Of a stretch of DNA of 64,000 nt, positions 8,415-61,700 are shown piece after piece (the first letter of the stretch is position 1; every line of letters begins with the position of its first letter). Location of the stretch: assembly GCF_053078305.1 (NCBI RefSeq), contig NZ_CP166879.1; one strand, given 5' to 3'. Position numbers and translations under genes: made by a program. The notes below the pieces were generated by a model, which saw only the letters and a list, made by a program, of their open reading frames with translations, was not told where the DNA came from and did not search any database.

Positions 8415-8415
8415 T

Positions 8416-12362: not shown

Positions 12363-12365
12363 AGG

Positions 12366-12788
12366 GTGCTTAACGATCCCCGATTTACCGCTGAAGTCGA
12401 GCTGACCATTCCCTTTCACGACGTCGATATGATGGGCGTGGCCTGGCACGGTAACTATTTTCGCTACTTTGAAGTGGCCCGCGAGGCGCTGCTCAACCAG
12501 TTCAATTACGGCTATCGGCAGATGAAAGAGTCCGGTTATTTGTGGCCAGTGGTCGATGCGCGGGTGAAATATCGCCACGCCCTCACCTTTGAGCAACGCA
12601 TCCGCGTGCGTGCGCATATCGAAGAGTTCGAAAACCGTCTGCGGATTGGCTATCAGATTTTCGATGCCGAAACGGGCAAACGCGCCACCACCGGATACAC
12701 CATTCAGGTCGCGGTCGACGAGCAAAGCCGCGAACTGTGCTTTGTCAGCCCCGATATTCTGTTTGAACGCATGGGAGTCAAATCATGA
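12366..12788 (+). CDS. acyl-CoA/ACP thioesterase (4-hydroxybenzoyl-CoA thioesterase/YbgC-like hotdog)
   Basis: 140 aa; GTG start; HDVDMMGVAWHGNYFRYFE motif. Confidence 0.7.
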   Translation: MLNDPRFTAEVELTIPFHDVDMMGVAWHGNYFRYFEVAREALLNQFNYGYRQMKESGYLWPVVDARVKYRHALTFEQRIRVRAHIEEFENRLRIGYQIFDAETGKRATTGYTIQVAVDEQSRELCFVSPDILFERMGVKS

Positions 12789-15677: not shown

Positions 15678-16258
15678 TCAAACCTACCTTCTGGCGAGCG
15701 CTCGCCCTGACCGCTACGCTTATCCTCACCGGCTGTAGCCACTCGCAACCGGAACAGGAAGGCCGCCCGCAGGCGTGGCTGCAACCTGGCACGCGCATCA
15801 CGCTGCCGGCACCAGGGATTTCACCCGCCGTCAATTCCCAGCAACTGTTGACCGGCAGCTTCAACGGCAAAACCCAGTCGCTGTTAGTGATGCTTAACGC
15901 CGACGACCAGAAAATCACCCTTGCCGGGCTGTCGTCGGTCGGCATTCGCCTGTTTCTGGTGACCTACGATGCAAAAGGGCTACGCGCCGAGCAATCCATC
16001 GTCGTCCCACAGTTGCCGCCCGCAAGTCAGGTTCTGGCTGACGTAATGCTCAGCCACTGGCCGATTAGCGCCTGGCAACCGCAACTTCCCGCTGGCTGGA
16101 CACTTCGCGACAACGGTGACAAACGCGAACTGCGTAACGCCAGCGGCAAACTGGTCACGGAAATCACCTATCTGAATCGCCAGGGAAAACGCGTGCCAAT
16201 CAGCATTGAGCAGCATGTCTTTAAATACCACATCACCATTCAATACTTAGGTGACTGA
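15674..16258 (+). CDS. lipoprotein, DUF3261-like
   Basis: 194 aa; lipobox LTGCS; translationally coupled to flanking genes. Confidence 0.55.
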   Translation: MIKPTFWRALALTATLILTGCSHSQPEQEGRPQAWLQPGTRITLPAPGISPAVNSQQLLTGSFNGKTQSLLVMLNADDQKITLAGLSSVGIRLFLVTYDAKGLRAEQSIVVPQLPPASQVLADVMLSHWPISAWQPQLPAGWTLRDNGDKRELRNASGKLVTEITYLNRQGKRVPISIEQHVFKYHITIQYLGD

Positions 16259-17429: not shown

Positions 17430-17890
17430 GCCACTATTTATCCCCCGGCGCTTATCTGCCCCACGACGCGCCCATGTTACTGCTGGAAGACGTGGTGAGC
17501 GTCAGCGATGACAGCGCGGTGTGCCGCGTGACGGTTTCGCCCAGTGGCGTACTGGCACCGTTTCTCGACCCGGACGGCAATCTCCCTGGCTGGTTTGCCC
17601 TTGAACTGATGGCGCAAACCGTCGGCGTCTGGTCTGGCTGGCATCGCCACCAGCAGGGCAAAAACAGTATTGAGTTAGGGATGATACTGGGCGCGCGTGA
17701 ATTGCTTTGCGCCGCTGGCATTCTGCCCGCAGGCCAGACGCTGACCATTACCGTCAAACTGCTGATGCAGGACGATCGCTTCGGCAGTTTTGAGTGCAGC
17801 ATCAACGACGGCGAGGCGACGGGCCGCATTAACACCTTCCAGCCGACCGCGGAAGAACTTACCACCCTGTTTCAACAAGGAGCGTCCTGA
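17426..17890 (+). CDS. hotdog-fold dehydratase (FabA/FabZ-like)
   Basis: 154 aa; overlapping start/stop with neighbours. Confidence 0.65.
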   Translation: MSHYLSPGAYLPHDAPMLLLEDVVSVSDDSAVCRVTVSPSGVLAPFLDPDGNLPGWFALELMAQTVGVWSGWHRHQQGKNSIELGMILGARELLCAAGILPAGQTLTITVKLLMQDDRFGSFECSINDGEATGRINTFQPTAEELTTLFQQGAS

Positions 17891-18621
17891 TGAGTCGTTC
17901 AGTTCTGGTTACTGGTGCCAGCAAAGGCATTGGTCGCGCCATCGCCTGCCAACTGGCGGCAGACGGCTTTAACATTGGCGTTCACTATCACCGTGACGCC
18001 ACAGGCGCTCAGGAAACGCTGAATGCCATTGTCGCCAACGGGGGTAACGGGCGTTTGCTCAGTTTCGACGTCGCAAACCGCGAACAGTGTCGGGAAGTGC
18101 TGGAGCATGAGATCGCGCAACACGGTGCCTGGTACGGCGTGGTCAGTAACGCCGGGATCGCCCGCGATGCCGCTTTTCCGGCTTTAAGCGATGACGACTG
18201 GGATGCGGTGATCCACACCAATCTCGACAGTTTCTACAACGTCATTCAGCCGTGCATTATGCCAATGATCGGCGCGCGCCAGGGTGGGCGCATCATCACG
18301 CTGTCCTCGGTTTCCGGCGTAATGGGCAATCGCGGCCAGGTGAATTACAGCGCTGCCAAAGCCGGAATTATCGGCGCAACAAAAGCGCTGGCTATCGAAC
18401 TCGCAAAGCGCAAAATCACCGTCAATTGCATCGCGCCAGGGCTTATTGATACCGGGATGATCGAAATGGAAGAGAGCGCTCTGAAAGAGGCAATGTCGAT
18501 GATCCCCATGAAACGTATGGGCCAGGCGGAAGAAGTTGCCGGGCTTGCCAGTTATTTAATGTCTGATATTGCGGGTTACGTCACCCGCCAGGTTATTTCC
18601 ATCAACGGAGGGATGTTATGA
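17890..18621 (+). CDS. 3-oxoacyl-ACP reductase (FabG-like SDR)
   Basis: 243 aa; TGASKGIGRAIA Rossmann motif and YSAAK catalytic motif. Confidence 0.85.
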   Translation: MSRSVLVTGASKGIGRAIACQLAADGFNIGVHYHRDATGAQETLNAIVANGGNGRLLSFDVANREQCREVLEHEIAQHGAWYGVVSNAGIARDAAFPALSDDDWDAVIHTNLDSFYNVIQPCIMPMIGARQGGRIITLSSVSGVMGNRGQVNYSAAKAGIIGATKALAIELAKRKITVNCIAPGLIDTGMIEMEESALKEAMSMIPMKRMGQAEEVAGLASYLMSDIAGYVTRQVISINGGML

Positions 18622-19847
18622 CACGTCGCGTAGTGATTACAGGAATGGGTGGCGTGACTGCCTTTGGTGAAAACTGGCAGGACGTTTCTGCACGCTTACT
18701 GGCGTATGAAAATGCGGTGCGCAAAATGCCGGAGTGGCAGGTCTACGACGGGCTGCACACCCTGCTTGGCGCGCCTGTTGATGATTTCACGCTACCGGAG
18801 CACTACACCCGCAAGCGTATCCGTGCGATGGGCCGCGTGTCGCAAATGTCGACCCGTGCCAGCGAGCTGGCGTTAGAGCAGGCAGGGTTGATTGGCGATC
18901 CGATATTAACCAGCGGCGAAACGGGCATTGCGTACGGTTCATCGACCGGCAGTACCGGCCCGGTAAGCGAGTTCGCCACCATGCTGACGGAAAAGCACAC
19001 CAATAACATCACTGGCACCACCTATGTGCAGATGATGCCGCACACCACCGCCGTTAATACTGGCCTCTTTTTCGGCCTGCGCGGGCGGGTGATCCCAACC
19101 TCCAGCGCCTGTACTTCCGGCAGCCAGGCAATCGGTTATGCGTGGGAAGCCATTCGCCACGGTTATCAAACGGTGATGGTTGCTGGTGGTGCCGAAGAGT
19201 TATGTCCTTCAGAAGCAGCGGTATTTGATACGCTTTTCGCCACCAGCCAGCACAATGATGCGCCGAAAACCACACCTTCACCGTTCGATGAAAACCGCGA
19301 CGGGCTGGTGATTGGTGAAGGCGCAGGTACGCTCATTCTCGAAGAACTGGAGCACGCCAAAGCGCGCGGCGCGACCATTTACGGTGAAATCGTCGGCTTT
19401 GCGACTAACTGCGACGCGGCACATATTACCCAGCCGCAGCGCGAAACCATGCAGTATTGTATGGAGCAATCGCTGAAAATCGCCGGGTTAAGCGCACAAG
19501 ATATCGGCTATATTTCAGCGCATGGTACGGCGACCGATCGCGGTGATATGGCAGAAAGTCTGGCGACAGCAACCATTTACGGTGATAATGTGCCGCTCTC
19601 CTCGCTGAAAAGTTATTTTGGTCATACGCTTGGTGCCTGTGGCGCGCTCGAAGCCTGGATGAGTCTGCAAATGATGCGCGAAGGTTGGTTTGCGCCTACG
19701 CTAAACCTGAATAAACCAGACCCGAACTGTGGCGCGCTGGATTACATCATGCATGAAGCCCGAAAGGTTGATTGTGAGTTTTTGCAGAGTAACAACTTTG
19801 CCTTTGGCGGCATTAATACATCCATCATCATTAAGCGCTGGCCCTGA
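18618..19847 (+). CDS. beta-ketoacyl-ACP synthase II (FabF-like)
   Basis: 409 aa; KS Cys context (SSACTSG), HGTAT and GHTLGACG motifs; last gene of the cluster. Confidence 0.85.
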   Translation: MTRRVVITGMGGVTAFGENWQDVSARLLAYENAVRKMPEWQVYDGLHTLLGAPVDDFTLPEHYTRKRIRAMGRVSQMSTRASELALEQAGLIGDPILTSGETGIAYGSSTGSTGPVSEFATMLTEKHTNNITGTTYVQMMPHTTAVNTGLFFGLRGRVIPTSSACTSGSQAIGYAWEAIRHGYQTVMVAGGAEELCPSEAAVFDTLFATSQHNDAPKTTPSPFDENRDGLVIGEGAGTLILEELEHAKARGATIYGEIVGFATNCDAAHITQPQRETMQYCMEQSLKIAGLSAQDIGYISAHGTATDRGDMAESLATATIYGDNVPLSSLKSYFGHTLGACGALEAWMSLQMMREGWFAPTLNLNKPDPNCGALDYIMHEARKVDCEFLQSNNFAFGGINTSIIIKRWP

Positions 19848-32059: not shown

Positions 32060-33658
32060 ATGGTAACTCGGACAATGCAACAAAAGTATCAGTATGATCG
32101 TGTTTTATCCGGCGAACTCCACCCATTCCCTGGCATATACGAGGCGGTTTCCGAACAAATCCTTTTGCTCATTTTTAAAGCACGTCAACTATATCAGGAT
32201 CCAGAATATCGCCCCTGGTTTGAAGAACAGCACAGAGTACTCTCTGCATTACGTGCCAATACAGAGCTCCTGAGAATCTTTAGAGAACAAAGAAGCGCTG
32301 AAGAACCAAAGCTTACTATTGAAGAGTCTACCTCCCCCCAACCCACTCCTTCTGCTCTTACAGATGCGCTTAATGTGATGTGCCATTTATACAATGGTTT
32401 TGATGAAGGAAATATCAGTCTGAAAACCTGGGGGGCGATGCAAGAGGTACAGACAACATCAACCTTTATCAGCCCAGGACCGAGAACCTGGAAAACACCT
32501 GAACTGGCAAAGTTTGTAGGAGATGATTTATTTAATATTCTGACTGAATGTAAGGCCTGGAGTTCACCAATTCCAGCAGAAACCCGACAGGGGTATTGCC
32601 ATCAGGATCTGTCTGTTGCACACTCCTGCACCTCAGAGTTACTGGCACACCTGAATCAATATCATGAAATTGATGAATCAGCAATACTTGCCAGAGTTAT
32701 TGGTATAACAGTTAACGGATTCTACAAGAAAAATAATACAGACCTTCCAGAATGGCTATCCCCCTTTAAAGAGGAACATAAAATATTCAGAGATTGTCCG
32801 GAGCAAAATACCGGGGATGTAATCAGACGGAAAGAACAACTGTTGAAAACAGGACGTACAGAATTCGTGAATAATTTGTGTCGGGTCGCCAACTGGTATG
32901 AAATTGAGTCAATATACGATGAATACGTCCGTCTTTATGCCAATGAAATCATTGACTGGTTCAACAAAACCATGAAGTATTTTAAACCAACAGATTTTAT
33001 CCGATATACATGGAAATTCGCAACAGTTACTCCGGATAAAGATACAGAAACCGGGCATACAACTGCATGGGAAAAGGATTATTGCCAGATAACCATACAA
33101 CGTGATGAACTTCTGAGGTTGATTCACACCAATACCCTTCAGGATGCAGTAATTTATCTTTGTCATTGTCTGCAGAAGGAATACAAGAAATCATCCCAAA
33201 ATGAGATAGAGTTCCCAGGAATAAAACCTCCGACATCAGAGAGTAAAATTAATATAACAAATAATATTAAATTTCATTCTCTCCTGGAGCTCAGTAAAGA
33301 TAATGAGAAGCGTCTGGAAACATTTCAAAAATGGTATGAAAAAAATAAAGTTTTGTTAGAAAGTCATAAACAAAAACGAACAGAGAAGATTGACGTTGCC
33401 GTACGACTTGTAGGGCTGAAAGCCTATGATCTGCATGAAGGGATTCCGGATAGTCCAAAACGAAAAGTTAAAGATGGCATAAATGAAGACATCAAAGCCG
33501 ATACCAGTTTACGCCTGTCAAAGACAAATATAAGTGATACGTCGCTAAACCGTTATCGCCGCACTGTTAAGGAGATTATCAATAACGAAATTGACGCATT
33601 CCTGTTGGAACAGAAGAAAAAAATAAAAGATTTCCCTACAGTGAAGATAGAGATGTGA
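32060..33658 (+). CDS. hypothetical protein, 532 aa, no recognisable domain
   Basis: Long clean ORF in low-GC DNA; hydrophilic, Lys/Glu-rich C-terminal region; no motif I can place. Confidence 0.5.
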   Translation: MVTRTMQQKYQYDRVLSGELHPFPGIYEAVSEQILLLIFKARQLYQDPEYRPWFEEQHRVLSALRANTELLRIFREQRSAEEPKLTIEESTSPQPTPSALTDALNVMCHLYNGFDEGNISLKTWGAMQEVQTTSTFISPGPRTWKTPELAKFVGDDLFNILTECKAWSSPIPAETRQGYCHQDLSVAHSCTSELLAHLNQYHEIDESAILARVIGITVNGFYKKNNTDLPEWLSPFKEEHKIFRDCPEQNTGDVIRRKEQLLKTGRTEFVNNLCRVANWYEIESIYDEYVRLYANEIIDWFNKTMKYFKPTDFIRYTWKFATVTPDKDTETGHTTAWEKDYCQITIQRDELLRLIHTNTLQDAVIYLCHCLQKEYKKSSQNEIEFPGIKPPTSESKINITNNIKFHSLLELSKDNEKRLETFQKWYEKNKVLLESHKQKRTEKIDVAVRLVGLKAYDLHEGIPDSPKRKVKDGINEDIKADTSLRLSKTNISDTSLNRYRRTVKEIINNEIDAFLLEQKKKIKDFPTVKIEM

Positions 33659-35526: not shown

Positions 35527-36927
35527 TTATTGTTCGAACTTCGGAGCAATCAGATTATCAAGATTGAATGTCTTCTCCCATTCTTCCTGTGTGAGTAGCT
35601 TACGTTCGACAACCACTATCTGATGGAGGGATTTACCTGTATGGTATGCTTCGTGCGCCATTTCAGAACACACCTTATATCCCAGATGTGGCTTCAGGAG
35701 AGTCACAATACCGCAGGAATGCATTACCATCTCTGCAGTTCGATCGGAATTGGCTGTAATGCCATCAATGCATTTAGTACGGAGTGTGTTGCAGGCATTC
35801 GTCATCACCTTGAGTGAGGTGAACAGCGCAAAAGTGATAACCGGCTCCATAACGTTAAGCTCAAGCTGACCTGCGGATGCCGCCAGCATCACTGTGGTGT
35901 CCAGCCCCTGAACCAGGAAGCAAGACTGGTTTGTTACTTCCGGGATAACAGGGTTAACCTTACCAGGCATAATGGAAGAACCCGGTTGTAACTGAGGCAG
36001 GTTAATTTCAGCCAGTCCGCAACGGGGACCTGAAGCAAGCAACCGAATGTCATTACAAACCTTGGTAAGCTTCACAGAGAGGCTCTTCATGGCCGAACTA
36101 AGTGCAACGTATGCACCACAGTCGCTTGTGGCAGCGATGAGATCTTCACTGTTCCTGAAATTAATACCTGTGAACTGGGCCAGGTATTTCACGGCTAAAG
36201 CGGGATAATCCGGGTGAGCAGTAACACAGGTACCAATCGCAGTAGCACCAAGGTTTACAACCCGCAGGTGTTCCTGCGCATTGCGGATGACCCGAATTTC
36301 ATCATTAATTGTAAAACCCCAGCCATGAAACTCCTGACCGAGGGTCATTGGCACTGCATCCTGCAGATGAGTGCGTCCCATCTTGAGTACTCTGCTGAAT
36401 TCGTCAGCCTTTTTGTAGAATGCCCCAACAAGGTGTTCAACAGCCTCAAGCAATACATTGCTTCGCAGCAGCAATGCCAGATGTAATGCTGTCGGATATG
36501 TATCATTGGTGGACTGACCAAAATTAGCATGGTCGTTTGGCGAAACGCGTTTGTAATCCCCTTTAACGCTACCAAGTTTTTCTGCAGCAAGATTACAAAT
36601 CACTTCATTGCAGTTCATATTGGTTGACGTTCCGGCTCCTCCCTGAAGCCAGTCGGTCACAAACTGTTCCCGGTACTTACCATCAATTAATTGGTCGCAA
36701 GCCCAGATTAAAGCATCCGCAACATCAGCAGGAATTGTACCTAACTCCTTATTAGCCATCGCAGCTGCTTTTTTCACATAACCGAAGGCAATGATGAAGA
36801 AGGGCTCCTGACTCATTGGCATTTCAGTAATATGGAAATTATCCTCACCACGAAGTGTCTGAACACCATAATAGCAATCATCCGGAACTTCACGCTCACC
36901 AAGGAAATCACTTTCAGTACGAGACAT
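35527..36927 (-). CDS. aspartate ammonia-lyase family enzyme (aspartase/fumarase class II fold)
   Basis: 466 aa; signature GSSIMPGKVNPV and the TNDTYPTA region; about half-identical to AspA by eye. Confidence 0.85.
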   Translation of the reverse strand: MSRTESDFLGEREVPDDCYYGVQTLRGEDNFHITEMPMSQEPFFIIAFGYVKKAAAMANKELGTIPADVADALIWACDQLIDGKYREQFVTDWLQGGAGTSTNMNCNEVICNLAAEKLGSVKGDYKRVSPNDHANFGQSTNDTYPTALHLALLLRSNVLLEAVEHLVGAFYKKADEFSRVLKMGRTHLQDAVPMTLGQEFHGWGFTINDEIRVIRNAQEHLRVVNLGATAIGTCVTAHPDYPALAVKYLAQFTGINFRNSEDLIAATSDCGAYVALSSAMKSLSVKLTKVCNDIRLLASGPRCGLAEINLPQLQPGSSIMPGKVNPVIPEVTNQSCFLVQGLDTTVMLAASAGQLELNVMEPVITFALFTSLKVMTNACNTLRTKCIDGITANSDRTAEMVMHSCGIVTLLKPHLGYKVCSEMAHEAYHTGKSLHQIVVVERKLLTQEEWEKTFNLDNLIAPKFEQ

Positions 36928-37163
36928 AATTTTCTAACTCCATTTTTCAAAAACAACGATTATAATTATGAATTGTTTAACCGGAACTATGCTCTCGGAA
37001 TTTGAACTCTCAACTTCATTGAATAAGAACCTCGATAACATGTGATTTCAATCTGTCAGAATTCTTCTGACAGTCAGTAACTGAATGCAAATTAACTGCC
37101 TGACTAATTATCAAATAGTAACTCTGTAACTACTTCCATAAAGAATGAAAAATTATGATTCTG

Positions 37164-38462
37164 TCAGACCACCATTGGTGCAATCACAAACCCAAATGTC
37201 ACTCCTGCAATAACACCTCCCAACCCGGGTAGCATAAATGGGTGATTTAATACATATTTGCCCACACGGGTTGTACCGGTAGTATCAAATTCCATCGCGG
37301 CCAGTGATGTTGGATACGTTGGAAGCACGAATACTCCCGTAACGGCAACATAAGATGCAAGAATTGCCCAGGTGGGTACATCAAGCGCCACAGCAAGCGG
37401 AATAATTAACGGCGTGGTCGCGCCTTGCGAGTAGAGCAGAGCACAAGTGCCAAAAAGAACCAGCGCCAACAACATCGGATAGGCCTGCAAAATATCGCCA
37501 GCAGTATCCTTAATCTCGGTTAAATGCGCATCAATAAAAGTAGTGCCTAAGGTTACAATGCCGAGAATCACCGCCAGCGAGCTCATCCCCGCACGAAATG
37601 TGGAGGTGAGAATAATGGCATCGGTAGCCGTCTTGCACAGCACCACCATCAGGCAGGCGGCAGAGAGCATACAGATAATAATAATATCGCGTGTTTCCAT
37701 CGGTTTGCCGATATCAAACCCCGGACGCAGTTGAGGGAAAGCGGCAAGAATAACAATGGCGACCGTCGCCAGCAGGAACAATCCTACGGAAAGCGTCGCA
37801 CCAGGTTTGATGCTGCTATTATTCTCGTATTTATGCACCAGTCCTTTTTGCAGACGCTCAAGATAGACCTCGTCATCCTGCAACTCACATCCTTGTCGGG
37901 AAGCAATAAAAGCGGCGACCATCGCGGCGGCAAAAGAGGTAGGAAGACATACCGACATCACCTCAATAAAACTGACGCCGTTAACCTCCATAATAGTGAG
38001 CATAGCAGCCATTGCGGCGCTGATCGGCGAACCAGAAATCGCTACCTGCGAAGCAACGACCGAACCGGCGAGCGTGCGGGAAGGACGAATACCTGACTCT
38101 TTCGCAACTTCAGCAATCACCGGCAGTGTGGAAAAAACAATAAATCCGGTACCGGCCATAATAGTCATTGACCAGGTAATAATCGGCGCGATGATGTTGA
38201 TATATTTCGGGTTACGACGCATAAAATTACCGGCGACGCGTACCAGATAATCCATTCCGCCTGCGGCCTGTAATGCTGAAGCCGCCACAACAACAGTCAT
38301 AATAATCAGGATCACGTCTACTGGCGGTGACCCCATAGGCAGACCAAATCCCAGAGTCAGGATAGCGAGTCCAAGCCCGCCACATAAACCAATACCGATC
38401 CCTCCCTGGCGAATACCAAAAAATATTGCGCCAAGTACTACGATAATTTCCAGCCAAACCAT
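37164..38462 (-). CDS. anaerobic C4-dicarboxylate transporter, DcuA/DcuB family
   Basis: 432 aa, polytopic membrane protein with Dcu-family character. Confidence 0.8.
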   Translation of the reverse strand: MVWLEIIVVLGAIFFGIRQGGIGIGLCGGLGLAILTLGFGLPMGSPPVDVILIIMTVVVAASALQAAGGMDYLVRVAGNFMRRNPKYINIIAPIITWSMTIMAGTGFIVFSTLPVIAEVAKESGIRPSRTLAGSVVASQVAISGSPISAAMAAMLTIMEVNGVSFIEVMSVCLPTSFAAAMVAAFIASRQGCELQDDEVYLERLQKGLVHKYENNSSIKPGATLSVGLFLLATVAIVILAAFPQLRPGFDIGKPMETRDIIIICMLSAACLMVVLCKTATDAIILTSTFRAGMSSLAVILGIVTLGTTFIDAHLTEIKDTAGDILQAYPMLLALVLFGTCALLYSQGATTPLIIPLAVALDVPTWAILASYVAVTGVFVLPTYPTSLAAMEFDTTGTTRVGKYVLNHPFMLPGLGGVIAGVTFGFVIAPMVV

Positions 38463-38528
38463 GATGTTCTCCGTTATAAATATAATTTTTTCTAAAAGTG
38501 AATGACTTTCTGGCTGCGATTAAAATGA

Positions 38529-39248
38529 TTATTGGGTTAGAATATGCTGTTTTCCGACACGATTTTCATACCATTTTATTCCGGCGCGAACGAGTGAAGC
38601 AGTTGAGTCAATATAATGAGAAGGCTGTGCTTTAACAGCTTCTGCCAGAATAACCGGAATTTCCGTACAACCAAGAACAAGAACTTCAGCGCCGCGAGAA
38701 AATAGTATTTCAGCCTGCTCGCTCATCAACTGTTGTGCATGCGTCATATCGCCAGCTTTCAAAGAATAAATACTTTCCATTACTTTTTTCTGACTGTCTG
38801 CATCGGGGCGGATACAGGTAAGTCCCAGCGACTCAATTCCTTTTTGGTATAATCCCATATACAGCGTAGCATTGGTGGCTAACAGGCCAATGCGGGTTTT
38901 ACCACAGTCGCGAACTTCATTGATCGTTGTCTCTACGATACTTAATATATCAATATGACAAGCATCTTTTAATTCTTTGAACCAGTAATGTGCGGTATTA
39001 CAGGGAATAACAATACATTCCGCCCCGGCATCTTCCAGTTTATGCATATAGTCACGCATAACAGGTAACGGCGAGCGCCCATGATGCATTAATGCATCGG
39101 TACGGTCAGGAATATTCGGAATAGAAGAAATAATTAATGGAATATGTTCCTGATCACGTTGTGCGGTGGTAAACGTCACAAATTTATTAAACAGATCGAC
39201 GGTAGCCGCCGGCCCCATTCCGCCGAGCACACCGATTAAACCTTTCAT
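38529..39248 (-). CDS. aspartate/glutamate racemase family protein (putative aspartate racemase)
   Basis: 239 aa; GVLGGMGPAAT N-terminus and the two catalytic-Cys contexts (CNTAH; GCTE). Confidence 0.8.
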   Translation of the reverse strand: MKGLIGVLGGMGPAATVDLFNKFVTFTTAQRDQEHIPLIISSIPNIPDRTDALMHHGRSPLPVMRDYMHKLEDAGAECIVIPCNTAHYWFKELKDACHIDILSIVETTINEVRDCGKTRIGLLATNATLYMGLYQKGIESLGLTCIRPDADSQKKVMESIYSLKAGDMTHAQQLMSEQAEILFSRGAEVLVLGCTEIPVILAEAVKAQPSHYIDSTASLVRAGIKWYENRVGKQHILTQ

Positions 39249-39601
39249 AATCTTTACCTCTCAGAACCTCAATAATAAATCTTAAATAACTACATCTCAT
39301 TTTTTAACAGTCTCCAATGGTTATGAGAAATGCAATGTTGTACAATGTAATGCAAGACTTGCATACTGTGGCTTTGTAATATATGAGCAATTTAGCATTG
39401 TGGCGTGAATACCTTTCATAATGATGAAAACAAACGCTTTTTGACGAGGTGTTAAACTTGTTTCGATACAAAAAATGAATGAATCATGCATAAAACGAAT
39501 AAGAAAATTTCAAATATGTTATCTGTAAACATTACTTTGATTTTCGGGGAAGTATCTTAACTAAGATTTGATAATAGTGGGATAATAGTGGGATTATAGA
39601 A

Positions 39602-40507
39602 ATGAAAAATATAGAGACAAAATGGTTATATGATTTTCTGGCGCTGGAAGCCTGTCGCAGTTTTTGTCAGGCAGCAAAAGAACGTAACCTTTCACAACCA
39701 GCATTCAGCAGAAGAATAAAGGCGTTAGAGTCAGCGATTGGTGTTGTTTTGTTCGATCGTACAACCTCACCTGTACAATTAACTGAAGAGGGTAGGCTTT
39801 TTCACTCCCAGACACGCAGTTTAGTGCAGCAGCTTGAATGCAATCTGAATGAATTAGGGGGGCTAAATTCATTCAATTTGCCCAATATTAAGATTGCAGC
39901 TGCTCACTCATTATCCCTCAGCATATTACCTAAACTGGTGTACTCACTCACTACCTTTGGCGGAGATTTTATCTATCATGTTGAGGCTATTGATGTTGTC
40001 CAAGCCGTAAATACATTACGAGAAGGGAAGAGTGACTTTGTTATTTCATTTCGAGATGAGGAGTTTATGCAATCGCCATTTTGCTACCTGAAACTGTTTG
40101 AGTCTGAGCTATATCCGGTATGTGCTGCTGATCAGCGGGGAAAACCAATTTTTGATATTACCCATTCACAGACCCCTTTGCTCAACTATACTCCAACTTC
40201 TTATATGGGCAGACTGGTTAATCATCATTTAGCAGAGTTAGGAGGGATATCCGGACACACAATTTTTGTATCTTCAATGAGTGAACTACTAAAAAATATG
40301 GCGCTCAATGGACTTGGTATTGCCTGGCTTCCACTCTGGTCAATTGCTGATGAGCTGAAGACCAAACGTCTTGTATGCCCGGGTTCAACTAAATGGACCG
40401 TGCCTATTCAGGCTTATATTTATCGTATGGATACTCGGCTGAATAAAACAGCTGAACACTTTTGGACGATTTTACGAAATAACATTGAAAAACTCAATGG
40501 TGAATAA
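39602..40507 (+). CDS. LysR-family transcriptional regulator, divergent from the racemase operon
   Basis: 301 aa; N-terminal LysR HTH (FCQAAKERNLSQPAFSRRIKALE) and substrate-binding domain. Confidence 0.85.
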   Translation: MKNIETKWLYDFLALEACRSFCQAAKERNLSQPAFSRRIKALESAIGVVLFDRTTSPVQLTEEGRLFHSQTRSLVQQLECNLNELGGLNSFNLPNIKIAAAHSLSLSILPKLVYSLTTFGGDFIYHVEAIDVVQAVNTLREGKSDFVISFRDEEFMQSPFCYLKLFESELYPVCAADQRGKPIFDITHSQTPLLNYTPTSYMGRLVNHHLAELGGISGHTIFVSSMSELLKNMALNGLGIAWLPLWSIADELKTKRLVCPGSTKWTVPIQAYIYRMDTRLNKTAEHFWTILRNNIEKLNGE

Positions 40508-52300: not shown

Positions 52301-53527
52301 TCAGAACTCCCAGTTGACACCCACATTCCAGGAAACATCACCGTCACTGAACGCAGTACCTGCCTTTGCCGCAGCCTGTTCGTTAAAGCGATATCCCATG
52401 CCCACCGCAACAGCCTGCTTGTCACTGTACCCGCCCACTGCCGCTGTGGCGTTAAATTTACCCACACTGTATGGCTGGAAAAGACCGGCCAGCGCTGCTG
52501 ACTGGGCTGCTGCCCGCTTCATTTCCTCATGATTCTCATTAATCTGACGCTGCTGACTGTTCATACGACGCTCATGCGCCTGCAGGGTACGTGCCTGAGA
52601 AGCAATGGCGCGACTGTTGCGTTCACCCACCTGACGGTTACGGCTTACCGCAGCACGGTTTTCTGTGGCCATTTCCTGTGTACGTACCAGCCCTTCCTGT
52701 ACAGTAATTCGTTCACCGGTTCCCTCACCGCGCGTCACATAACCATGACTGTCCACAGCAACGGTACTTCCGGTATTTATCTGCTGTTGCTGGCTGTTCA
52801 GGCGCTCTTCATGCGTCTCCAGCACGTCTCTCTGGGAAAGCAGCCCCCTGGTGTTACGGTTTATGGCCACCGTGTTCCGGATAATATTCTCCCTGTTCTC
52901 TGCAGCAACCGTATCGGTATGGTCACGCGCCTTAAGTGCTTCCGCTGCAATCCGTCCACTGACGTCACTGTACACCTCATCCGCCTTCCGGTTCAGTTGC
53001 CCGACAGTGGCTGCATCCGTATCCCGTGTACCATCACTGACACCACCGAGAACCCGGGTTTTATCCGGTACACGCGGACTGGCCGGGTTTGTGACACCTG
53101 AGTCATATCCGATGTAGACTTCATTTTCACGGGTTGTACCGGACTGCTGACCAAGAGCCACTGAATACCTGTGCATTGCCTGTGCACCCGTACCCAGTGC
53201 TACTGAATTTAAAGCATCTGCAGATGCCCAGCTACCTACTGCCACACCATTAGACGCCTCCGGATTTACATAAGCAGACATCCCCACGGATGTGGAAAAC
53301 GGCGCATGCGCATACGATGCAGAGCCAAGAGCTGTCCCTGCCTTCCCGGCATTCGCCCATGCCCCCACTGCCGTGGAGTCAGTCTCTGATGCAGAGGCTG
53401 TGTCCGGAGACGCCCAGGAACTGCCATCCTGCGCAAACGCCGGAGCACCGGCAATCAGAAAGGAAATAAGCGATAAAGTAATACCGTGTCGATTTATTTT
53501 CATAAACAACCTCATTGATATACACAA
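52301..53527 (-). CDS. trimeric autotransporter adhesin (YadA-like anchor), about 400 aa
   Basis: Signal peptide (probable start at M5 or M9: [24 protein letters not shown]), coiled stalk and C-terminal YadA-type anchor ...[46 protein letters not shown]. Confidence 0.8.
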
Positions 53528-53769: not shown

Positions 53770-55698
53770 TCAGACAATATAAACAGAATTGTGATTTATA
53801 TCCTCAAGCGCTGTATTAACGAAATATATCTGTCCTCCTGCAATACCTGCCTCAACATCATTTCCGGTTTGTTTCAGACATGAAATAAACTCATCTGTCG
53901 ATGTAACAATACCCTTTGATAAAAACAGAAAATCTTTTTCACCCTTATGTTTATTAAAATCCATGATAAATGAATTCCCTTCACAAGCAGCATCAAAGAC
54001 GAAGACATCATGACCAGTACCACCATACAGATAATCATTACCTCCCCCACCATATAACCAGTCGTTACCTTCTGCTCCGTACAACTCATCATTACCAGAA
54101 GCCCCATGAAGATAATCATTCCCGCGACCTCCGTGTAAAAGACTTACTCCTTCTCCCCCGGCACTATGTAATATATCATTTCCGTCAAGACCAAAAATAA
54201 TATTTCCGAACAGACTATCATCTCCGTTTGTACCTTCTGTATGTTTTCCGTAATCAACATTTTTATTACGCCACTTCAGAAGATACCTGTGGTCTGTAAT
54301 CTGCTCTTCTTCTATCTGATAAGGGCTTAGTTTACTCCTCCAGTCACCAGAAAAAGAGATACCTTCAATACCTGTTGCCTCAGTCAGACCGGCTCCCCGT
54401 TCTGAATGGAAAAACAGCGTCCCATCACTGACCCTGTATATATTCCAGTCATCCATTACATCGCTAAGAAGCAGCGTGTCATACCCACTGCCACCATCAA
54501 CCCTGTTTGCTCCCTTACCTGGTTCAATCTTATCATTCCCTCCCCCTCCCTCTATATAGTCGCCACCCTTCCCGCCTGCCAGCAGATTATTGCCATCATT
54601 ACCGATGATGAATACAGGTCTTTCACGACTCTCATCCCCCTTGTCATGAACCCATGAATACCAGGATGTCCAGCTACTTTGCTCATCCACAATGACTGTA
54701 CTGTCCGGTGACATGTAGTCGTAAAACTGAGCCCCTAAAATTCTTTCAAAGGCGTCAGTTTTTAAACCCGCAAAATGCGCACTCCAGCTTCCCAGCGGGA
54801 GTGCAAGCACAGAAAAGGGGATAATATTCCAGAGGAATGAACCATAAAGGTCTGTGTATAAAACAATGTTATCAGGAGAAGAGTCATATTCACGATCCGG
54901 GGTTGTCAAGCCCGGCCCCATTGCTTTAACTGCCTCCCAGAACCCGGCTCCATCTCCCAGCACACGAAATACCGGATCGTTTTCAAAACCGATATTTAAT
55001 ACCTTCCCATCCCCGTCAAATACCAGCGGGGAAGCCCAGGCTATATAGTCAGAATTAGCATAAAAACCATCAGCCAGAGACTCACTGAGTCTGGCCATAA
55101 TGTTAGTCAACCCGCCCCCCAGGCTATAGCCTGTGACAATAACATATTCACCACTTAAACCATTACTGACTGCAAAGTCTCTGATACTTTGAAGCAGGTT
55201 TTCTGCTTCAGACAGCGCTTTTCCATTATTGAGCTGTGTATAATCAACAATATCGCAGATATCATTTGTTCCACAGAATGATATTGCAATTTTCTGTAGA
55301 TTCTGTTGAGCATCAAACAACCCAACAACTTTCAACTGAGGACCAAATCCTGGCGCAGGGTTTCCTGTAACCGGACTGGGAAAGCGATAAAAACCTCTTG
55401 AATCGACATATTCCGAAGATAACCTGAGTTCTTCCACTGTAATATCACGCCAGCCTTCATTAAGAACATCGGTAGAATAATCAATCCTATCTGGGTGCTT
55501 TGCAAATAGCCTGGATACCAGAAAACTTCCTAATCCAAGAACCTTTCCAGTGTTGGAATATATAGCAAGATTATAAGAAGAAGAAACAAGTTCTGCTACA
55601 TGTGCAAAAGAATAAGATTTATAATTAAACACCCCCATAAAATCTCCTCTGAATTCATTTAAATATCCTTCATTTATCCAAGAAGAAACAAAAAGCAT
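53770..55698 (-). CDS. RTX-repeat lipase/esterase (class-3 lipase fold with C-terminal beta-roll; probable T1SS substrate)
   Basis: GYSLGG nucleophile-elbow motif; C-terminal nonapeptide repeats (GGKGGDYIEGGGGNDKI; GGRGNDYLHGASGNDELYGAEGNDWLYGGGGNDYLYGGTGHD); no signal peptide. Start codon uncertain. Confidence 0.75.
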   Translation of the reverse strand: MLFVSSWINEGYLNEFRGDFMGVFNYKSYSFAHVAELVSSSYNLAIYSNTGKVLGLGSFLVSRLFAKHPDRIDYSTDVLNEGWRDITVEELRLSSEYVDSRGFYRFPSPVTGNPAPGFGPQLKVVGLFDAQQNLQKIAISFCGTNDICDIVDYTQLNNGKALSEAENLLQSIRDFAVSNGLSGEYVIVTGYSLGGGLTNIMARLSESLADGFYANSDYIAWASPLVFDGDGKVLNIGFENDPVFRVLGDGAGFWEAVKAMGPGLTTPDREYDSSPDNIVLYTDLYGSFLWNIIPFSVLALPLGSWSAHFAGLKTDAFERILGAQFYDYMSPDSTVIVDEQSSWTSWYSWVHDKGDESRERPVFIIGNDGNNLLAGGKGGDYIEGGGGNDKIEPGKGANRVDGGSGYDTLLLSDVMDDWNIYRVSDGTLFFHSERGAGLTEATGIEGISFSGDWRSKLSPYQIEEEQITDHRYLLKWRNKNVDYGKHTEGTNGDDSLFGNIIFGLDGNDILHSAGGEGVSLLHGGRGNDYLHGASGNDELYGAEGNDWLYGGGGNDYLYGGTGHDVFVFDAACEGNSFIMDFNKHKGEKDFLFLSKGIVTSTDEFISCLKQTGNDVEAGIAGGQIYFVNTALEDINHNSVYIV

Positions 55699-55797
55699 TA
55701 TTCTCAGATAAATTTTTTCAGTAAAAGAGCATACCTGGAGTAGAACTTACAACGAAAAAGATCCCCCCACAGCAACGACTGTGAGGGGATACTATTG

Positions 55798-58700
55798 TTA
55801 CACTACATTAGTGATTCTCTCATCAATCAGAACCTGTACATCAGGAACCGAAGCATGTGTATAAATGTTATAAGTGATATCCCCTTCAGACTCAGTGCTT
55901 CCTTTAATCCAGTTATACCCATTGTCACTGAGGTTATCCCCGTTATTACCGAGGTCAACCCGAGAACTACCATCACCTGTGACTTTGAGTTTATTACCCT
56001 CTATAGAGGCAGAATTTAAATTCTCAGCCAACAAATTCAGTGCAGCTCCATCTTTCAGTTCAATCTTCTCAAAACCAGAGAATGTGTTGCTTGTGGCATT
56101 ACCCTGATGAATAACCAAGGTATCAAATCCAGAACCACCTTTAATATTTGAAGCATTATCAATATTAGCCACAATATCGATTACATCATTACCAGCACCT
56201 AAATCCAAGGTTGATGATTTGAGCGCAGCAAGAGAATTACCTCCTAACAATAACAGGCTGTCATTTCCATCTTCCATAGTAACAGTCGTTTTCTCTATAA
56301 AACCACCATTATTTGGGTATCCCGAATCATTATCAGGTATTATGATATCTCCATCCAGTCGTTGATACTTAGCGGTTTCTTCAATGCGGTAAGAACCATC
56401 CTTCCCATATACGACATCATAACCGCCTCGACCAAAACCAACTATCAGGATATCATCACCGATACCTGTATTTACCTCGGTCCATAGATCACTATATCCA
56501 ATCCCCAAATCACGACCAGTCACGATGGTATCGTCACCTGCACCAGTATCGACAACCATTGGTCTTACCCAGCGAGAAACGCCCAGATTCCCCAGTGACA
56601 GTTCAGTCGTAATTATATTATCCCCCTCTGTCATTTCCAGTAGAGCGACGTTATTAGCACCATTCTTACTTATTACATAAACATTTGTCCCTACATTTGC
56701 CTCATGAGCCTTAATGGCCAAGAATGATTTAGAATCTTTTTGTAAATCATCATCAGCGATTTTGACCTTTTGACCTGAGCCAGCTGTAACTCCATGACCT
56801 TGCGTCATGTTTACATTACCTGTATAGATAACGGTTCCAATCCGATCTATTGCATCCGGCTTGCCGTTGCCGTTTTCATCCACTGCCGGTACATCGATAC
56901 CGTCAACTTTAGCCAGACGCCCGTTCAGACCGTCCTTCGCATCTCCGGCCGGCAGACCTTCCACCGCTTTCGCCGCATCTGCTTTCGCCGCCGTTACCGC
57001 ATCGTTCTTCGCCGCAAGATCATCATGCTCCTGCTGGGTGATCTTATTGTCAGCCTTCGCCTGAGTCAGCGCCGCTTCTGCTTCTTTTTCCTTCGCTTCC
57101 GCTTCTGCTACCTTGGCTGTCGCTGCATTCACCGCCTCTGCTGCTTCCTCTGCATCCGGCTTGCCGTTGCCGTTTTCATCCACTGCCGGTACATCGATAC
57201 CGTCAACTTTAGCCAGACGCCCGTTCAGACCGTCCTTCGCATCTCCGGCCGGCAGACCTTCCACCGCTTTCGCCGCATCTGCTTTCGCCGCCGTTACCGC
57301 ATCGTTCTTCGCCGCAAGATCATCATGCTCCTGCTGGGTGATCTTATTGTCAGCCTTCGCCTGAGTCAGCGCCGCTTCTGCTTCTTTTTCCTTCGCTTCC
57401 GCTTCTGCTACCTTGGCTGTCGCTGCATTCACCGCCTCTGCTGCTTCCTCTGCATCCGGCTTGCCGTTGCCGTTTTCATCCACTGCCGGTACATCGATAC
57501 CGTCAACTTTAGCCAGACGCCCGTTCAGACCGTCCTTCGCATCTCCGGCCGGCAGACCTTCCACCGCTTTCGCCGCATCTGCTTTCGCCGCCGTTACCGC
57601 ATCGTTCTTCGCCGCAAGATCATCATGCTCCTGCTGGGTGATCTTATTGTCAGCCTTCGCCTGAGTCAGCGCCGCTTCTGCTTCTTTTTCCTTCGCTTCC
57701 GCTTCTGCTACCTTGGCTGTCGCTGCATTCACCGCCTCTGCTGCTTCCTCTGCATCCGGCTTGCCGTTGCCGTTTTCATCCACTGCCGGTACATCGATAC
57801 CGTCAACTTTAGCCAGACGCCCGTTCAGACCGTCCTTCGCATCTCCGGCCGGCAGACCTTCCACCGCTTTCGCCGCATCTGCTTTCGCCGCCGTTACCGC
57901 ATCGTTCTTCGCCGCAAGATCATCATGCTCCTGCTGGGTGATCTTATTGTCAGCCTTCGCCTGAGTCAGCGCCGCTTCTGCTTCTTTTTCCTTCGCTTCC
58001 GCTTCTGCTACCTTGGCTGTCGCTGCATTCACCGCCTCTGCTGCTTCCTCTGCATCCGGCTTGCCGTTGCCGTTTTCATCCACTGCCGGTACATCGATAC
58101 CGTCAACTTTAGCCAGACGCCCGTTCAGACCGTCCTTCGCATCTCCGGCCGGCAGACCTTCCACCGCTTTCGCCGCATCTGCTTTCGCCGCCGTTACCGC
58201 ATCGTTCTTCGCCGCAAGATCATCATGCTCCTGCTGGGTGATCTTATTGTCAGCCTTCGCCTGAGTCAGCGCCGCTTCTGCTTCTTTTTCCTTCGCTTCC
58301 GCTTCTGCTACCTTGGCTGTCGCTGCATTCACCGCCTCTGCTGCTTCCTCTGCATCCGGCTTGCCGTTGCCGTTTTCATCCACTGCCGGTACATCGATAC
58401 CGTCAACTTTAGCCAGACGCCCGTTCAGACCGTCCTTCGCATCTCCGGCCGGCAGACCTTCCACCGCTTTCGCCGCATCTGCTTTCGCCGCCGTTACCGC
58501 ATCGTTCTTCGCCGCAAGATCATCATGCTCCTGCTGGGTGATCTTATTGTCAGCCTTCGCCTGAGTCAGCGCCGCTTCTGCTTCTTTTTCCTTCGCTTCC
58601 GCTTCTGCTACCTTGGCTGTCGCTGCATTCACCGCCTCTGCTGCTTCCTCTGCATCCGGCTTGCCGTTGCCGTTTTCATCCACTGCCGGTACATCGATAC

Positions 58701-61700
58701 CGTCAACTTTAGCCAGACGCCCGTTCAGACCGTCCTTCGCATCTCCGGCCGGCAGACCTTCCACCGCTTTCGCCGCATCTGCTTTCGCCGCCGTTACCGC
58801 ATCGTTCTTCGCCGCAAGATCATCATGCTCCTGCTGGGTGATCTTATTGTCAGCCTTCGCCTGAGTCAGCGCCGCTTCTGCTTCTTTTTCCTTCGCTTCC
58901 GCTTCTGCTACCTTGGCTGTCGCTGCATTCACCGCCTCTGCTGCTTCCTCTGCATCCGGCTTGCCGTTGCCGTTTTCATCCACTGCCGGTACATCGATAC
59001 CGTCAACTTTAGCCAGACGCCCGTTCAGACCGTCCTTCGCATCTCCGGCCGGCAGACCTTCCACCGCTTTCGCCGCATCTGCTTTCGCCGCCGTTACCGC
59101 ATCGTTCTTCGCCGCAAGATCATCATGCTCCTGCTGGGTGATCTTATTGTCAGCCTTCGCCTGAGTCAGCGCCGCTTCTGCTTCTTTTTCCTTCGCTTCC
59201 GCTTCTGCTACCTTGGCTGTCGCTGCATTCACCGCCTCTGCTGCTTCCTCTGCATCCGGCTTGCCGTTGCCGTTTTCATCCACTGCCGGTACATCGATAC
59301 CGTCAACTTTAGCCAGACGCCCGTTCAGACCGTCCTTCGCATCTCCGGCCGGCAGACCTTCCACCGCTTTCGCCGCATCTGCTTTCGCCGCCGTTACCGC
59401 ATCGTTCTTCGCCGCAAGATCATCATGCTCCTGCTGGGTGATCTTATTGTCAGCCTTCGCCTGAGTCAGCGCCGCTTCTGCTTCTTTTTCCTTCGCTTCC
59501 GCTTCTGCTACCTTGGCTGTCGCTGCATTCACCGCCTCTGCTGCTTCCTCTGCATCCGGCTTGCCGTTGCCGTTTTCATCCACTGCCGGTACATCGATAC
59601 CGTCAACTTTAGCCAGACGCCCGTTCAGACCGTCCTTCGCATCTCCGGCCGGCAGACCTTCCACCGCTTTCGCCGCATCTGCTTTCGCCGCCGTTACCGC
59701 ATCGTTCTTCGCCGCAAGATCATCATGCTCCTGCTGGGTGATCTTATTGTCAGCCTTCGCCTGAGTCAGCGCCGCTTCTGCTTCTTTTTCCTTCGCTTCC
59801 GCTTCTGCTACCTTGGCTGTCGCTGCATTCACCGCCTCTGCTGCTTCCTCTGCATCCGGCTTGCCGTTGCCGTTTTCATCCACTGCCGGTACATCGATAC
59901 CGTCAACTTTAGCCAGACGCCCGTTCAGACCGTCCTTCGCATCTCCGGCCGGCAGACCTTCCACCGCTTTCGCCGCATCTGCTTTCGCCGCCGTTACCGC
60001 ATCGTTCTTCGCCGCAAGATCATCATGCTCCTGCTGGGTGATCTTATTGTCAGCCTTCGCCTGAGTCAGCGCCGCTTCTGCTTCTTTTTCCTTCGCTTCC
60101 GCTTCTGCTACCTTGGCTGTCGCTGCATTCACCGCCTCTGCTGCTTCCTCTGCATCCGGCTTGCCGTTGCCGTTTTCATCCACTGCCGGTACATCGATAC
60201 CGTCAACTTTAGCCAGACGCCCGTTCAGACCGTCCTTCGCATCTCCGGCCGGCAGACCTTCCACCGCTTTCGCCGCATCTGCTTTCGCCGCCGTTACCGC
60301 ATCGTTCTTCGCCGCAAGATCATCATGCTCCTGCTGGGTGATCTTATTGTCAGCCTTCGCCTGAGTCAGCGCCGCTTCTGCTTCTTTTTCCTTCGCTTCC
60401 GCTTCTGCTACCTTGGCTGTCGCTGCATTCACCGCCTCTGCTGCTTCCTCTGCATCCGGCTTGCCGTTGCCGTTTTCATCCACTGCCGGTACATCGATAC
60501 CGTCAACTTTAGCCAGACGCCCGTTCAGACCGTCCTTCGCATCTCCGGCCGGCAGACCTTCCACCGCTTTCGCCGCATCTGCTTTCGCCGCCGTTACCGC
60601 ATCGTTCTTCGCCGCAAGATCATCATGCTCCTGCTGGGTGATCTTATTGTCAGCCTTCGCCTGAGTCAGCGCCGCTTCTGCTTCTTTTTCCTTCGCTTCC
60701 GCTTCTGCTACCTTGGCTGTCGCTGCATTCACCGCCTCTGCTGCTTCCTCTGCATCCGGCTTGCCGTTGCCGTTTTCATCCACTGCCGGTACATCGATAC
60801 CGTCAACTTTAGCCAGACGCCCGTTCAGACCGTCCTTCGCATCTCCGGCCGGCAGACCTTCCACCGCTTTCGCCGCATCTGCTTTCGCCGCCGTTACCGC
60901 ATCGTTCTTCGCCGCAAGATCATCATGCTCCTGCTGGGTGATCTTATTGTCAGCCTTCGCCTGAGTCAGCGCCGCTTCTGCTTCTTTTTCCTTCGCTTCC
61001 GCTTCTGCTACCTTGGCTGTCGCTGCATTCACCGCCTCTGCTGCTTCCTCTGCATCCGGCTTGCCGTTGCCGTTTTCATCCACTGCCGGTACATCGATAC
61101 CGTCAACTTTAGCCAGACGCCCGTTCAGACCGTCCTTCGCATCTCCGGCCGGCAGACCTTCCACCGCTTTCGCCGCATCTGCTTTCGCCGCCGTTACCGC
61201 ATCGTTCTTCGCCGCAAGATCATCATGCTCCTGCTGGGTGATCTTATTGTCAGCCTTCGCCTGAGTCAGCGCCGCTTCTGCTTCTTTTTCCTTCGCTTCC
61301 GCTTCTGCTACCTTGGCTGTCGCTGCATTCACCGCCTCTGCTGCTTCCTCTGCATCCGGCTTGCCGTTGCCGTTTTCATCCACTGCCGGTACATCGATAC
61401 CGTCAACTTTAGCCAGACGCCCGTTCAGACCGTCCTTCGCATCTCCGGCCGGCAGACCTTCCACCGCTTTCGCCGCATCTGCTTTCGCCGCCGTTACCGC
61501 ATCGTTCTTCGCCGCAAGATCATCATGCTCCTGCTGGGTGATCTTATTGTCAGCCTTCGCCTGAGTCAGCGCCGCTTCTGCTTCTTTTTCCTTCGCTTCC
61601 GCTTCTGCTACCTTGGCTGTCGCTGCATTCACCGCCTCTGCTGCTTCCTCTGCATCCGGCTTGCCGTTGCCGTTTTCATCCACTGCCGGTACATCGATAC

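Follow-up and report, generated by a model that had tools for sequence, protein, structure and literature searches.

What kind of enzyme is encoded beside a giant repeat adhesin in Escherichia coli, and by which route would it leave the cell? The question is raised by a minus-strand gene at positions 53770..55698 of a 64,000-nucleotide stretch of contig NZ_CP166879.1 (RefSeq assembly GCF_053078305.1), the whole of which is called the window here; its host is E. coli. A sequence-only reading of the window had described the product as a class-3 lipase fused to repeats-in-toxin (RTX) beta-roll repeats, exported by type I secretion and sharing the apparatus of its neighbours.

The account reached here, which we regard as probable as a whole, is that the gene encodes a Ca2+-dependent lipase of the family I.3 type, horizontally acquired as a cargo of a tos-type operon, with the adjacent exporter as its likeliest route. 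The support computed here consists of full-length homology, catalytic and calcium-site residues, the predicted fold, purifying selection and gene order. The core of the sequence-only reading is right; its family is to be amended to I.3, its start codon moved to 55638 and its argument from the neighbouring autotransporter dropped.

Family assignment and predicted fold

The open reading frame (ORF) is intact, and its longest form has 642 aa. On sequence and fold comparison, the product of 53770-55638 is firmly assigned to the bacterial family I.3 RTX lipases, to which it is homologous over its full length. The NCBIfam model NF050046 PueAB (polyurethane esterase) aligns with residues 21-641 of the 642-aa ORF over model positions 1-615 of 616 (E 1.3e-99). 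Among PDB sequences phmmer ranks PML, the lipase of Pseudomonas sp. MIS38, first (2z8x, E 1.3e-63), and LipA of Serratia marcescens comes next (2qua, E 3.5e-60); further PDB matches cover the RTX part only. Length is also alike, 613-617 aa in PML (2z8x, 2zvd), LipA (2qua), Pseudomonas fluorescens TliA/LipA and P. chlororaphis PueA/PueB against 622 aa here. As in PML and LipA, a predicted N-terminal alpha/beta-hydrolase precedes two RTX beta-rolls packed as a C-terminal sandwich, and the GxSxG elbow, the triad and three aspartates of the N-terminal domain stand at aligned positions. A signal peptide is lacking and the extreme C-terminus is hydrophobic, again as in I.3 lipases.

The catalytic triad of PML is Ser207, Asp255 and His313 (PMC7745013). 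These residues align with Ser172 (GYSLG), Asp221 (ENDPVF) and His288 (WSAHF) of the E. coli protein, the elbow of PML reading GHSLG. PML Asp157, Asp275 and Asp337, which we take to be calcium-site aspartates of the catalytic domain, align with Asp129, Asp248 and Asp312; the PML mutants D157A and D337A are deposited as PDB 2zj7 and 2zj6. In an alignment of 49 homologous sequences (32-97% identity), S172, D221, H288 and D129 do not vary, and at least 90% of the sequences keep D248 and D312.

An AlphaFold2 model built with the same alignment has a mean pLDDT (per-residue confidence score) of 87.8 and a pTM (predicted template modelling score) of 0.88, with a beta-strand ladder in the RTX part. 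Its sole disordered or low-confidence segment, residues 32-50, is taken to be the lid-1 region. In a Foldseek search against the PDB, the seven best matches are PML and LipA (E 2e-38 to 3e-36, TM 0.65-0.68, ~680 aligned columns). These two are the only full-length structural matches; isolated RTX domains come next.

Start codon and sequence features

Translation most probably begins at the second in-frame ATG (55638), which gives a protein of 622 aa. Four features favour it: a Shine-Dalgarno sequence, AGAGGAGA (55643-55650), lies 4 nt 5' of this ATG; the PueAB alignment begins at residue 21 of the 642-aa ORF; M1, F4 and Y6 of the 622-aa form are nearly invariant among the aligned homologues; and all RefSeq homologues inspected are annotated in this form, as 622 aa with the start MG[VLM]FNYK. 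Across the family, the N-terminal M-x-x-F-x-Y is conserved as a structural element, and the N-terminus forms a conserved helix in the fold. The long start at 55698 was dismissed on the Shine-Dalgarno position, the begin of the family model and homologue annotation.

The motifs named by the sequence-only reading are present. The GYSLGG elbow occupies residues 190-195 of the 642-aa ORF, and a motif scan finds 11 G-x-x-G-x-D/N-x-U-x nonapeptides in two blocks, 346-390 and 469-547 (622-aa numbering). The RTX repeats lie far beyond chance, because Pfam HemolysinCabind matches the protein three times (E 2e-10, 4e-8 and 2e-5).

The same reading had named two points on which it could fail, a missing esterase fold and an N-terminal Sec signal. 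Both were tested: the fold is predicted and matches PML and LipA, and a Sec signal was not found. The N-terminus, with one basic residue in its first 8, has neither a basic n-region nor a hydrophobic h-region; over its first 50 residues no 11-residue stretch exceeds a Kyte-Doolittle mean of 1.5, whereas the signal peptide of the adjacent autotransporter reaches 2.5. This call is one of hydrophobicity and charge of the N-terminus rather than of a dedicated signal-peptide predictor.

A variant of the tos operon

The neighbours are those named by the sequence-only reading, a giant repeat protein on one side and a YadA-like autotransporter on the other. Compared gene by gene, the locus is a variant of the tosCBDA-EF operon of uropathogenic E. 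coli, with the lipase gene and the YadA-like gene placed between the tosA-like and tosEF-like genes. In CFT073 the order is tosR-tosCBD-tosA-tosEF, and nothing lies between tosA and tosE. In sister loci the order is TolC, ATP-binding cassette (ABC) protein, HlyD, giant protein, lipase, YadA-like protein, small ORF, LuxR, LuxR; equivalents of tosC and tosB fall past the end of the window but are present in these sister loci.

The likeness to the CFT073 tos operon is close in the exporter. The sister-locus ABC protein, membrane fusion protein (MFP) and TolC are 94.5%, 98.1% and 91.2% identical to TosB, TosD and TosC, and the adaptor in the window is 97% identical to CFT073 TosD over 263 aa. A TosD-type adaptor, a TosA-type N-terminus and TosE/TosF-type regulators follow in the same order. 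The differences are that CFT073 carries neither the lipase nor the YadA-like gene and that the giant protein and TosA have unrelated passenger repeats; part of the C-terminal region of the giant protein is ~32% identical to CFT073 TosA.

Within the giant gene a perfect (100% identical) 300-bp unit is repeated 18.1 times in tandem (56851-62292). Its annotated length ranges from 2.25 kb (strain 2015C-3121) to 13.2 kb (RM10410) in sister strains, so either the number of repeats is highly unstable or some records are mis-assembled.

The genomic setting also differs. An "OEP locus" has been described next to subAB2-2 (PMC3852854), and the chromosomal lipase cassettes adjoin subAB2-2, whereas the tos operon of CFT073 lies in PAI-aspV. 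The cassette adjoins subAB in two chromosomal loci inspected, a position that matches the OEP locus, and in the Shiga-toxigenic E. coli (STEC) strain 2015C-3121 subA lies ~1.5 kb beyond the TolC gene. The gene for the PapB-family regulator TosR is present on the IncF-plasmid version; the chromosomal versions have no such gene annotated upstream of TolC, and an IS110 fragment and then subAB are found there instead, in a region outside the window.

A clustering of this kind has a parallel among the described apr/lip gene clusters (PMC3034196). In P. fluorescens B52 a type I exporter, autotransporters and an RTX lipase are likewise grouped, as aprX-inh-aprDEF-prtAB-lipA (PMC3034196). There the exporter is AprDEF (PrtD-type), the co-cargo is a small metalloprotease and the autotransporters are of the classical serine-protease type, whereas the window has a giant retention-module adhesin and a trimeric YadA-like autotransporter.

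Related loci annotate the autotransporter as "YadA-like family protein". The small ORF between it and the tosE-like gene is conserved; its SCU-171 counterpart has no NCBIfam match. An ORF at 51383-51958(+) was dismissed as an antisense shadow of the tosE-like gene.

Route of export

Export of the lipase by some type I system is judged likely. For the adjacent TosCBD-type system in particular, the balance leans towards it with less assurance. Sharing the exporter with the giant protein is plausible from synteny only, because in E. coli and Paralysiella alike the lipase gene comes immediately after the giant adhesin gene and the genes for type I secretion. Within E. coli this holds for 7/7 contexts inspected, on chromosomes and IncF plasmids: the window, RM10410, SCU-171, 2015C-3121 and the plasmids p113Kb, 89-3156 and pGE3. 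In the IncF-plasmid cassettes inspected the YadA-like gene is absent and the lipase gene still follows the giant gene, so the association of the lipase is with the type I system and the adhesin rather than with the autotransporter.

Paralysiella testudinis (Neisseriaceae, CP069798.1) carries the closest non-E. coli relative of the lipase, at 47% identity. Its gene order is outer membrane efflux protein (OEP)-ABC-MFP-(OmpA)-giant repeat protein-lipase, as in E. coli, with the ABC protein 61% and the MFP 64% identical. This cluster lacks the YadA-like gene and the LuxR regulators, and its repeats are Big_6-type; it is uncharacterised, and the support it lends is one of synteny.

The sequence-only reading had placed the lipase in a shared secretion apparatus because it stands between the giant protein and the autotransporter. 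The half of this argument that survives is the type I secretion operon directly upstream, whose adjacency is kept among the E. coli loci. The other half falls. A type Vc autotransporter inserts itself into the outer membrane, and the one here has its own Sec signal and is absent from IncF-plasmid cassettes that keep the lipase, so it is uninformative on lipase secretion.

The enzymatic activity, substrate, secretion and choice of exporter that we infer for the lipase can be put together as follows. The protein would be made without a signal peptide and recognised via its C-terminal region. It would then be threaded unfolded through a TolC/ABC/HlyD type I secretion system and would fold outside the cell once Ca2+ fills the two RTX beta-rolls. 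Ester bonds would be hydrolysed by Ser172-Asp221-His288 after Ca2+-assisted opening of the lid.

A bolder proposal is tentative, and we hold it at somewhat below an even chance. It states that the soluble I.3-type lipase is the second, released cargo of an adhesin-class (LssB/LapB-like, TosCBD) system whose giant adhesin is retained on the surface, that the unit is a mobile module of Neisseriaceae and E. coli, and that the extracellular lipase aids colonisation. If true, one exporter would serve a surface-retained adhesin as well as an enzyme that is freely secreted, crossing the accepted division between ABC exporters of the adhesin/toxin type and those of the small-enzyme type. The exporter-adhesin-lipase set would be a mobile unit common to Neisseriaceae and E. 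coli, and some Shiga-toxigenic and extraintestinal E. coli would gain an extracellular lipase contributing to colonisation.

Distribution, alleles and selection

The lipase gene is present in 51 of 5426 complete E. coli genomes (~1%), located 28 times on a chromosome and 24 times on a plasmid; many of the carriers listed bear STEC strain names. At least 80% of the gene is covered in 50 of these 51 genomes. In a plasmid collection it is found on 18 plasmids, 17 of them predicted to be conjugative; the three inspected are IncF. The nearest protein cluster, at 97% identity, is a 90%-identity cluster of 1484 member sequences named "hypothetical protein [Escherichia coli]". The tosD-type adaptor occurs in 313/5426 genomes, so about 1 in 6 tos-type loci carries the lipase.

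The lipase gene is under purifying selection, with pairwise dN/dS (ratio of nonsynonymous to synonymous substitution rates) among four E. coli alleles of 0.22-0.55, or 0.18-0.38 without the first 40 codons. The alleles are mosaic. In the catalytic core (residues 41-540) those of E. coli share 92-99% identity. The first 40 residues (55519-55638) are 67-82% identical in all compared pairs but one, and residues 543-622 (53773-54012) fall into a chromosomal type and an IncF-plasmid type, 53% identical to each other.

The exporter proteins do not split in the way the lipase C-termini do; the C-terminal split tracks what lies downstream, for which a recombination breakpoint in the 3' end of the gene, with two intact C-terminal modules, would be the simplest reading. 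A co-variation of the C-terminal type with the exporter, as a hint of co-adaptation, was considered and is not convincing, the ABC and MFP proteins staying 95-99% identical.

Horizontal acquisition on a low-GC island is what the composition of the gene (GC 0.43; GC at third codon positions, GC3, 0.34) and the Neisseriaceae affinity of its closest relatives point to. The species norm of E. coli is a higher GC than that of the lipase gene.

Expression signals

A terminator- or attenuator-like hairpin lies past the stop of the giant gene (RNA fold of 55790-55751, -23.1 kcal/mol, z = -6.4). A hairpin occupies the same position in every locus variant, CFT073 tosA included, although the sequences are unrelated. 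Between it and the lipase start stands a sigma-70-like promoter match by consensus only, and promoter-like matches are no commoner in the region than in shuffled sequence. The lipase gene may be read through, attenuated or separately transcribed, alternatives between which the sequence cannot decide.

Alternative explanations

Several observations gathered in this section weigh against the account of a tos-exported family I.3 lipase, and some concern the enzyme itself. The PueAB score of 334.3 bits is half the curated cut-off of 670, and since it lies under that cut-off the protein is best classed as a relative of PueA/PueB, not an orthologue. Identity to any characterised lipase is ~30%, and for these two reasons substrate specificity is not transferable. 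The I.3 lipases are described as Cys-free (PMC3034196, PMC7745013), unlike the E. coli protein, which has four Cys (122, 128, 552, 587), none of them conserved; Cys is absent from 29 of the 49 aligned sequences (query counted in), and its absence is a descriptive family trait rather than a mechanistic requirement. At the position of VTLVG, the I.3 secretion motif (PMC7745013), the E. coli lipase clade reads IYFVN, and distant members keep SVTLVG; a hydrophobic C-terminal tail (...NSVYIV) is present, as a hydrophobic tail is in all members compared. The lid-2 region is also shorter, as seen from alignment gaps. These departures from the family description leave the catalytic machinery untouched. 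A substrate other than triacylglycerol, with the enzyme acting as a phospholipase A1, short-chain esterase or polyesterase on host or microbial membranes or mucosal lipids, is rather doubtful. In its favour, a polyurethane esterase is the best curated model, weak or faint precomputed matches to Pfam PF26363 "Phospholipase-like" are recorded for several close homologues, the identity to true lipases is low and the lid-1 region is modelled with low confidence; the architecture, triad and calcium-site aspartates, however, match the true lipases PML and LipA, and in the Pfam copy searched no "Phospholipase-like" match was found for the lipase or any of the 49 aligned homologues. It is barely tenable, although the sequence-only reading implied it, that a "class 3" lipase domain of fungal type has been newly fused to RTX repeats. 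The serine-hydrolase/RTX architecture of that reading stands; its label is imprecise and suggests a novelty that the protein does not have. Pfam Lipase_3 (PF01764) matches the lipase marginally at the nucleophile elbow (E 0.44-0.46), with E<=0.1 in 20 of the 49 homologues but E<=0.001 in only one, and a novel fusion is contradicted by full-length collinearity with PML, LipA and PueAB, the 622-aa architecture being that of long-known I.3 lipases.

Other observations concern the exporter and the function of the gene. It is unlikely, on our estimate, that a genuine I.3-type hydrolase is exported by another type I system of the host (e.g. Ehx/Hly HlyBD-TolC in STEC) or is secreted poorly or not at all. 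What speaks for this is that the ABC protein of the cassette scores 891 bits with the LssB-subfamily model (cut-off 693) against 341 with the PrtD model, that a strong hairpin separates the giant gene from the lipase gene, and that 7 of the 8 non-E. coli relatives sampled are orphans among housekeeping genes with no exporter nearby (Uruburuella, a Neisseria metagenome-assembled genome (MAG), Neisseriaceae B1, a Burkholderiaceae MAG, Halomonas and two metagenomic contigs). The gene of a classical-type homologue, in Mixta, likewise stands alone as an orphan. Exporter adjacency as a general trait of the clade is ruled out by these relatives, and the synteny support therefore rests on E. coli and Paralysiella. 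The ABC protein has 715 aa, ~150 of them ahead of the membrane domain, and Pfam detected no C39-like domain in the protein; its class assignment rests on the NCBIfam LssB model and this N-terminal extension. The classical I.3 lipases adjoin exporters of the AprDEF, LipBCD or TliDEF type, and the characterised ones are exported by PrtD/AprD/LipB/TliD-type proteins without that N-terminal domain, whereas the E. coli lipase adjoins an LssB/adhesin-class exporter. Export by the adjacent system is nevertheless favoured by the strict adjacency of lipase, exporter and giant gene in every E. coli context inspected, IncF plasmids of unrelated backgrounds included, and by the same arrangement with an orthologous exporter in Paralysiella. 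A precedent for one type I system with unrelated cargos also exists, Serratia LipBCD exporting a lipase, a protease and an S-layer protein. That the gene is a decaying passenger without current function in E. coli is very improbable. An IS3-family element splits it in at least four STEC genomes (2015C-3121: locus 9001-12205), and in E. coli Z1323MEC0001, which is otherwise the strain nearest to the window (99.1% over 46.2-64 kb), the lipase slot between the giant gene and the YadA-like gene is taken by a further YadA-like gene of greater length (locus 15616-17358); these cases indicate that the lipase gene is dispensable, and it is also missing from most genomes with a tosD-type adaptor. On the other side, the gene is intact in the window and largely covered in nearly all carriers, its dN/dS values speak for purifying selection, all catalytic and calcium-site residues are kept and the protein cluster is large.

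Significance

The enzyme family is known; what is new is an unannotated member in an unexpected host and operon, paired with an adhesin-class type I exporter. To our knowledge, E. coli is not known for an extracellular lipase. The genera named for I.3 lipases in one account are Pseudomonas and Serratia (PMC3034196), whereas the host here is E. coli. In every database record inspected the lipase is labelled "hypothetical" or "calcium-binding protein". A literature search by lipase protein accessions found no paper, and one on I.3 lipases and pathogenicity islands gave no title describing this protein. The word "lipase" does not occur in the OEP-locus paper (PMC3852854), and a review uses it for autotransporter passenger domains only (PMC7545054).

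Many carriers are Shiga-toxigenic, with the lipase gene a few kilobases from subAB2-2, and it is also carried on conjugative IncF plasmids of blood, urine and cerebrospinal fluid isolates. The lipase is thus a concrete candidate for a secreted virulence or colonisation factor, and its assignment gives a stretch of the "OEP locus" an annotation. Because it is linked to an adhesin-class exporter, it offers a simple genetic system in which to ask whether such exporters release small enzymes.

Coordinates of the lipase gene, its parts and the neighbouring tos-type features in the window
Feature	Position	Strand	Description and evidence
Lipase gene proper	53770..55638	-	622 aa, 67.8 kDa, isoelectric point 4.5; PueAB, PDB PML/LipA and AlphaFold2/Foldseek matches
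In-frame 20-codon upstream extension of the longest ORF	55639..55698	-	Probably untranslated leader; holds Shine-Dalgarno AGAGGAGA
Predicted N-terminal alpha/beta-hydrolase catalytic domain, residues 1-345	54604..55638	-	HMMER alignment to PML, conservation
Triad codons	Ser172 (GYSLG) 55123-55125; Asp221 54976-54978; His288 54775-54777	-	
First RTX block	54463..54603	-	Nonapeptides at residues 346, 355, 364, 382; HemolysinCabind 345-379 E 2e-5; AlphaFold2 beta strands
Second RTX block	53995..54234	-	Nonapeptides at 469, 483, 503, 512, 521, 530, 539; HemolysinCabind E 2e-10, 4.5e-8
C-terminal ~60 residues, presumed type I secretion signal region	53773..53952	-	PML alignment, homologue C-termini
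Weak sigma-70-like promoter match	55697..55725	-	TTTACT-17-AATAAT, 9/12; between hairpin and lipase start
Hairpin with U-run, terminator/attenuator-like	55751..55790	-	13-bp GC-rich stem (terminator scan); 8 nt past giant-gene stop
Giant TosA-like repeat adhesin	55798..62871	-	2357 aa; first 128 aa 86% identical to CFT073 TosA
HlyD-family type I adaptor gene, 3' part (tosD allele)	63156..64000	-	Leaves the window; TIGR01843 E 5e-65
YadA-like trimeric autotransporter	52301..53503	-	400 aa, own Sec signal peptide; NF033478 YadA_autotrans E 7e-33
Conserved small ORF between YadA-like and tosE-like genes	51967-52179	-	~68-70 aa; "hypothetical protein" in sister loci
TosE-like LuxR-type regulator	51428..51904	-	158 aa; 37% identical to CFT073 TosE, E 2e-40
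TosF-like LuxR-type regulator	50789..51304	-	42% identical to CFT073 TosF, E 2e-43; LuxR C-terminal helix-turn-helix matches

Other features of the window

An aryl-polyene/flexirubin-like lipid biosynthesis cluster (GC 0.54-0.60) occupies 5280-19847 (+). It comprises an FlxJ-family methyltransferase, an acyltransferase, an adenylating ligase, a glycosyltransferase, a LolA-like protein, an RND-like (resistance-nodulation-division) transporter, two ketoacyl-acyl carrier protein synthases and FabG2. Two damaged housekeeping genes follow: a truncated galactarate dehydratase gene with the last 165 residues (21581-22081) and a chimeric ORF (22964-23587) in which the N-terminal 96 residues of KbaZ are fused to the C-terminal 115 of an AgaS-type isomerase. 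Both resemble scars left by deletion, at the edge of the low-GC island, which begins near 28 kb.

The lowest GC of the window (0.38-0.41) is found at two ORFs of 488 and 532 aa, at 29112-30578 (-) and 32060-33658 (+), for which no NCBIfam match was found. A metabolic module of the island at 35527-40507 holds an aspartate ammonia-lyase-like gene, an anaerobic C4-dicarboxylate transporter, an amino-acid racemase for which cysteate racemase CuyB is the best model, and a divergent LysR regulator. Next, at 40.8-44.2 kb, come two copies of IS110, one of which is truncated, and an IS2/IS3 transposase. Between these insertion sequence elements and the tos-like cassette lies an island copy of the DolP/YraP lipoprotein gene at 46881-47456 (-), matched by NF008247 above the cut-off (E 1e-88).

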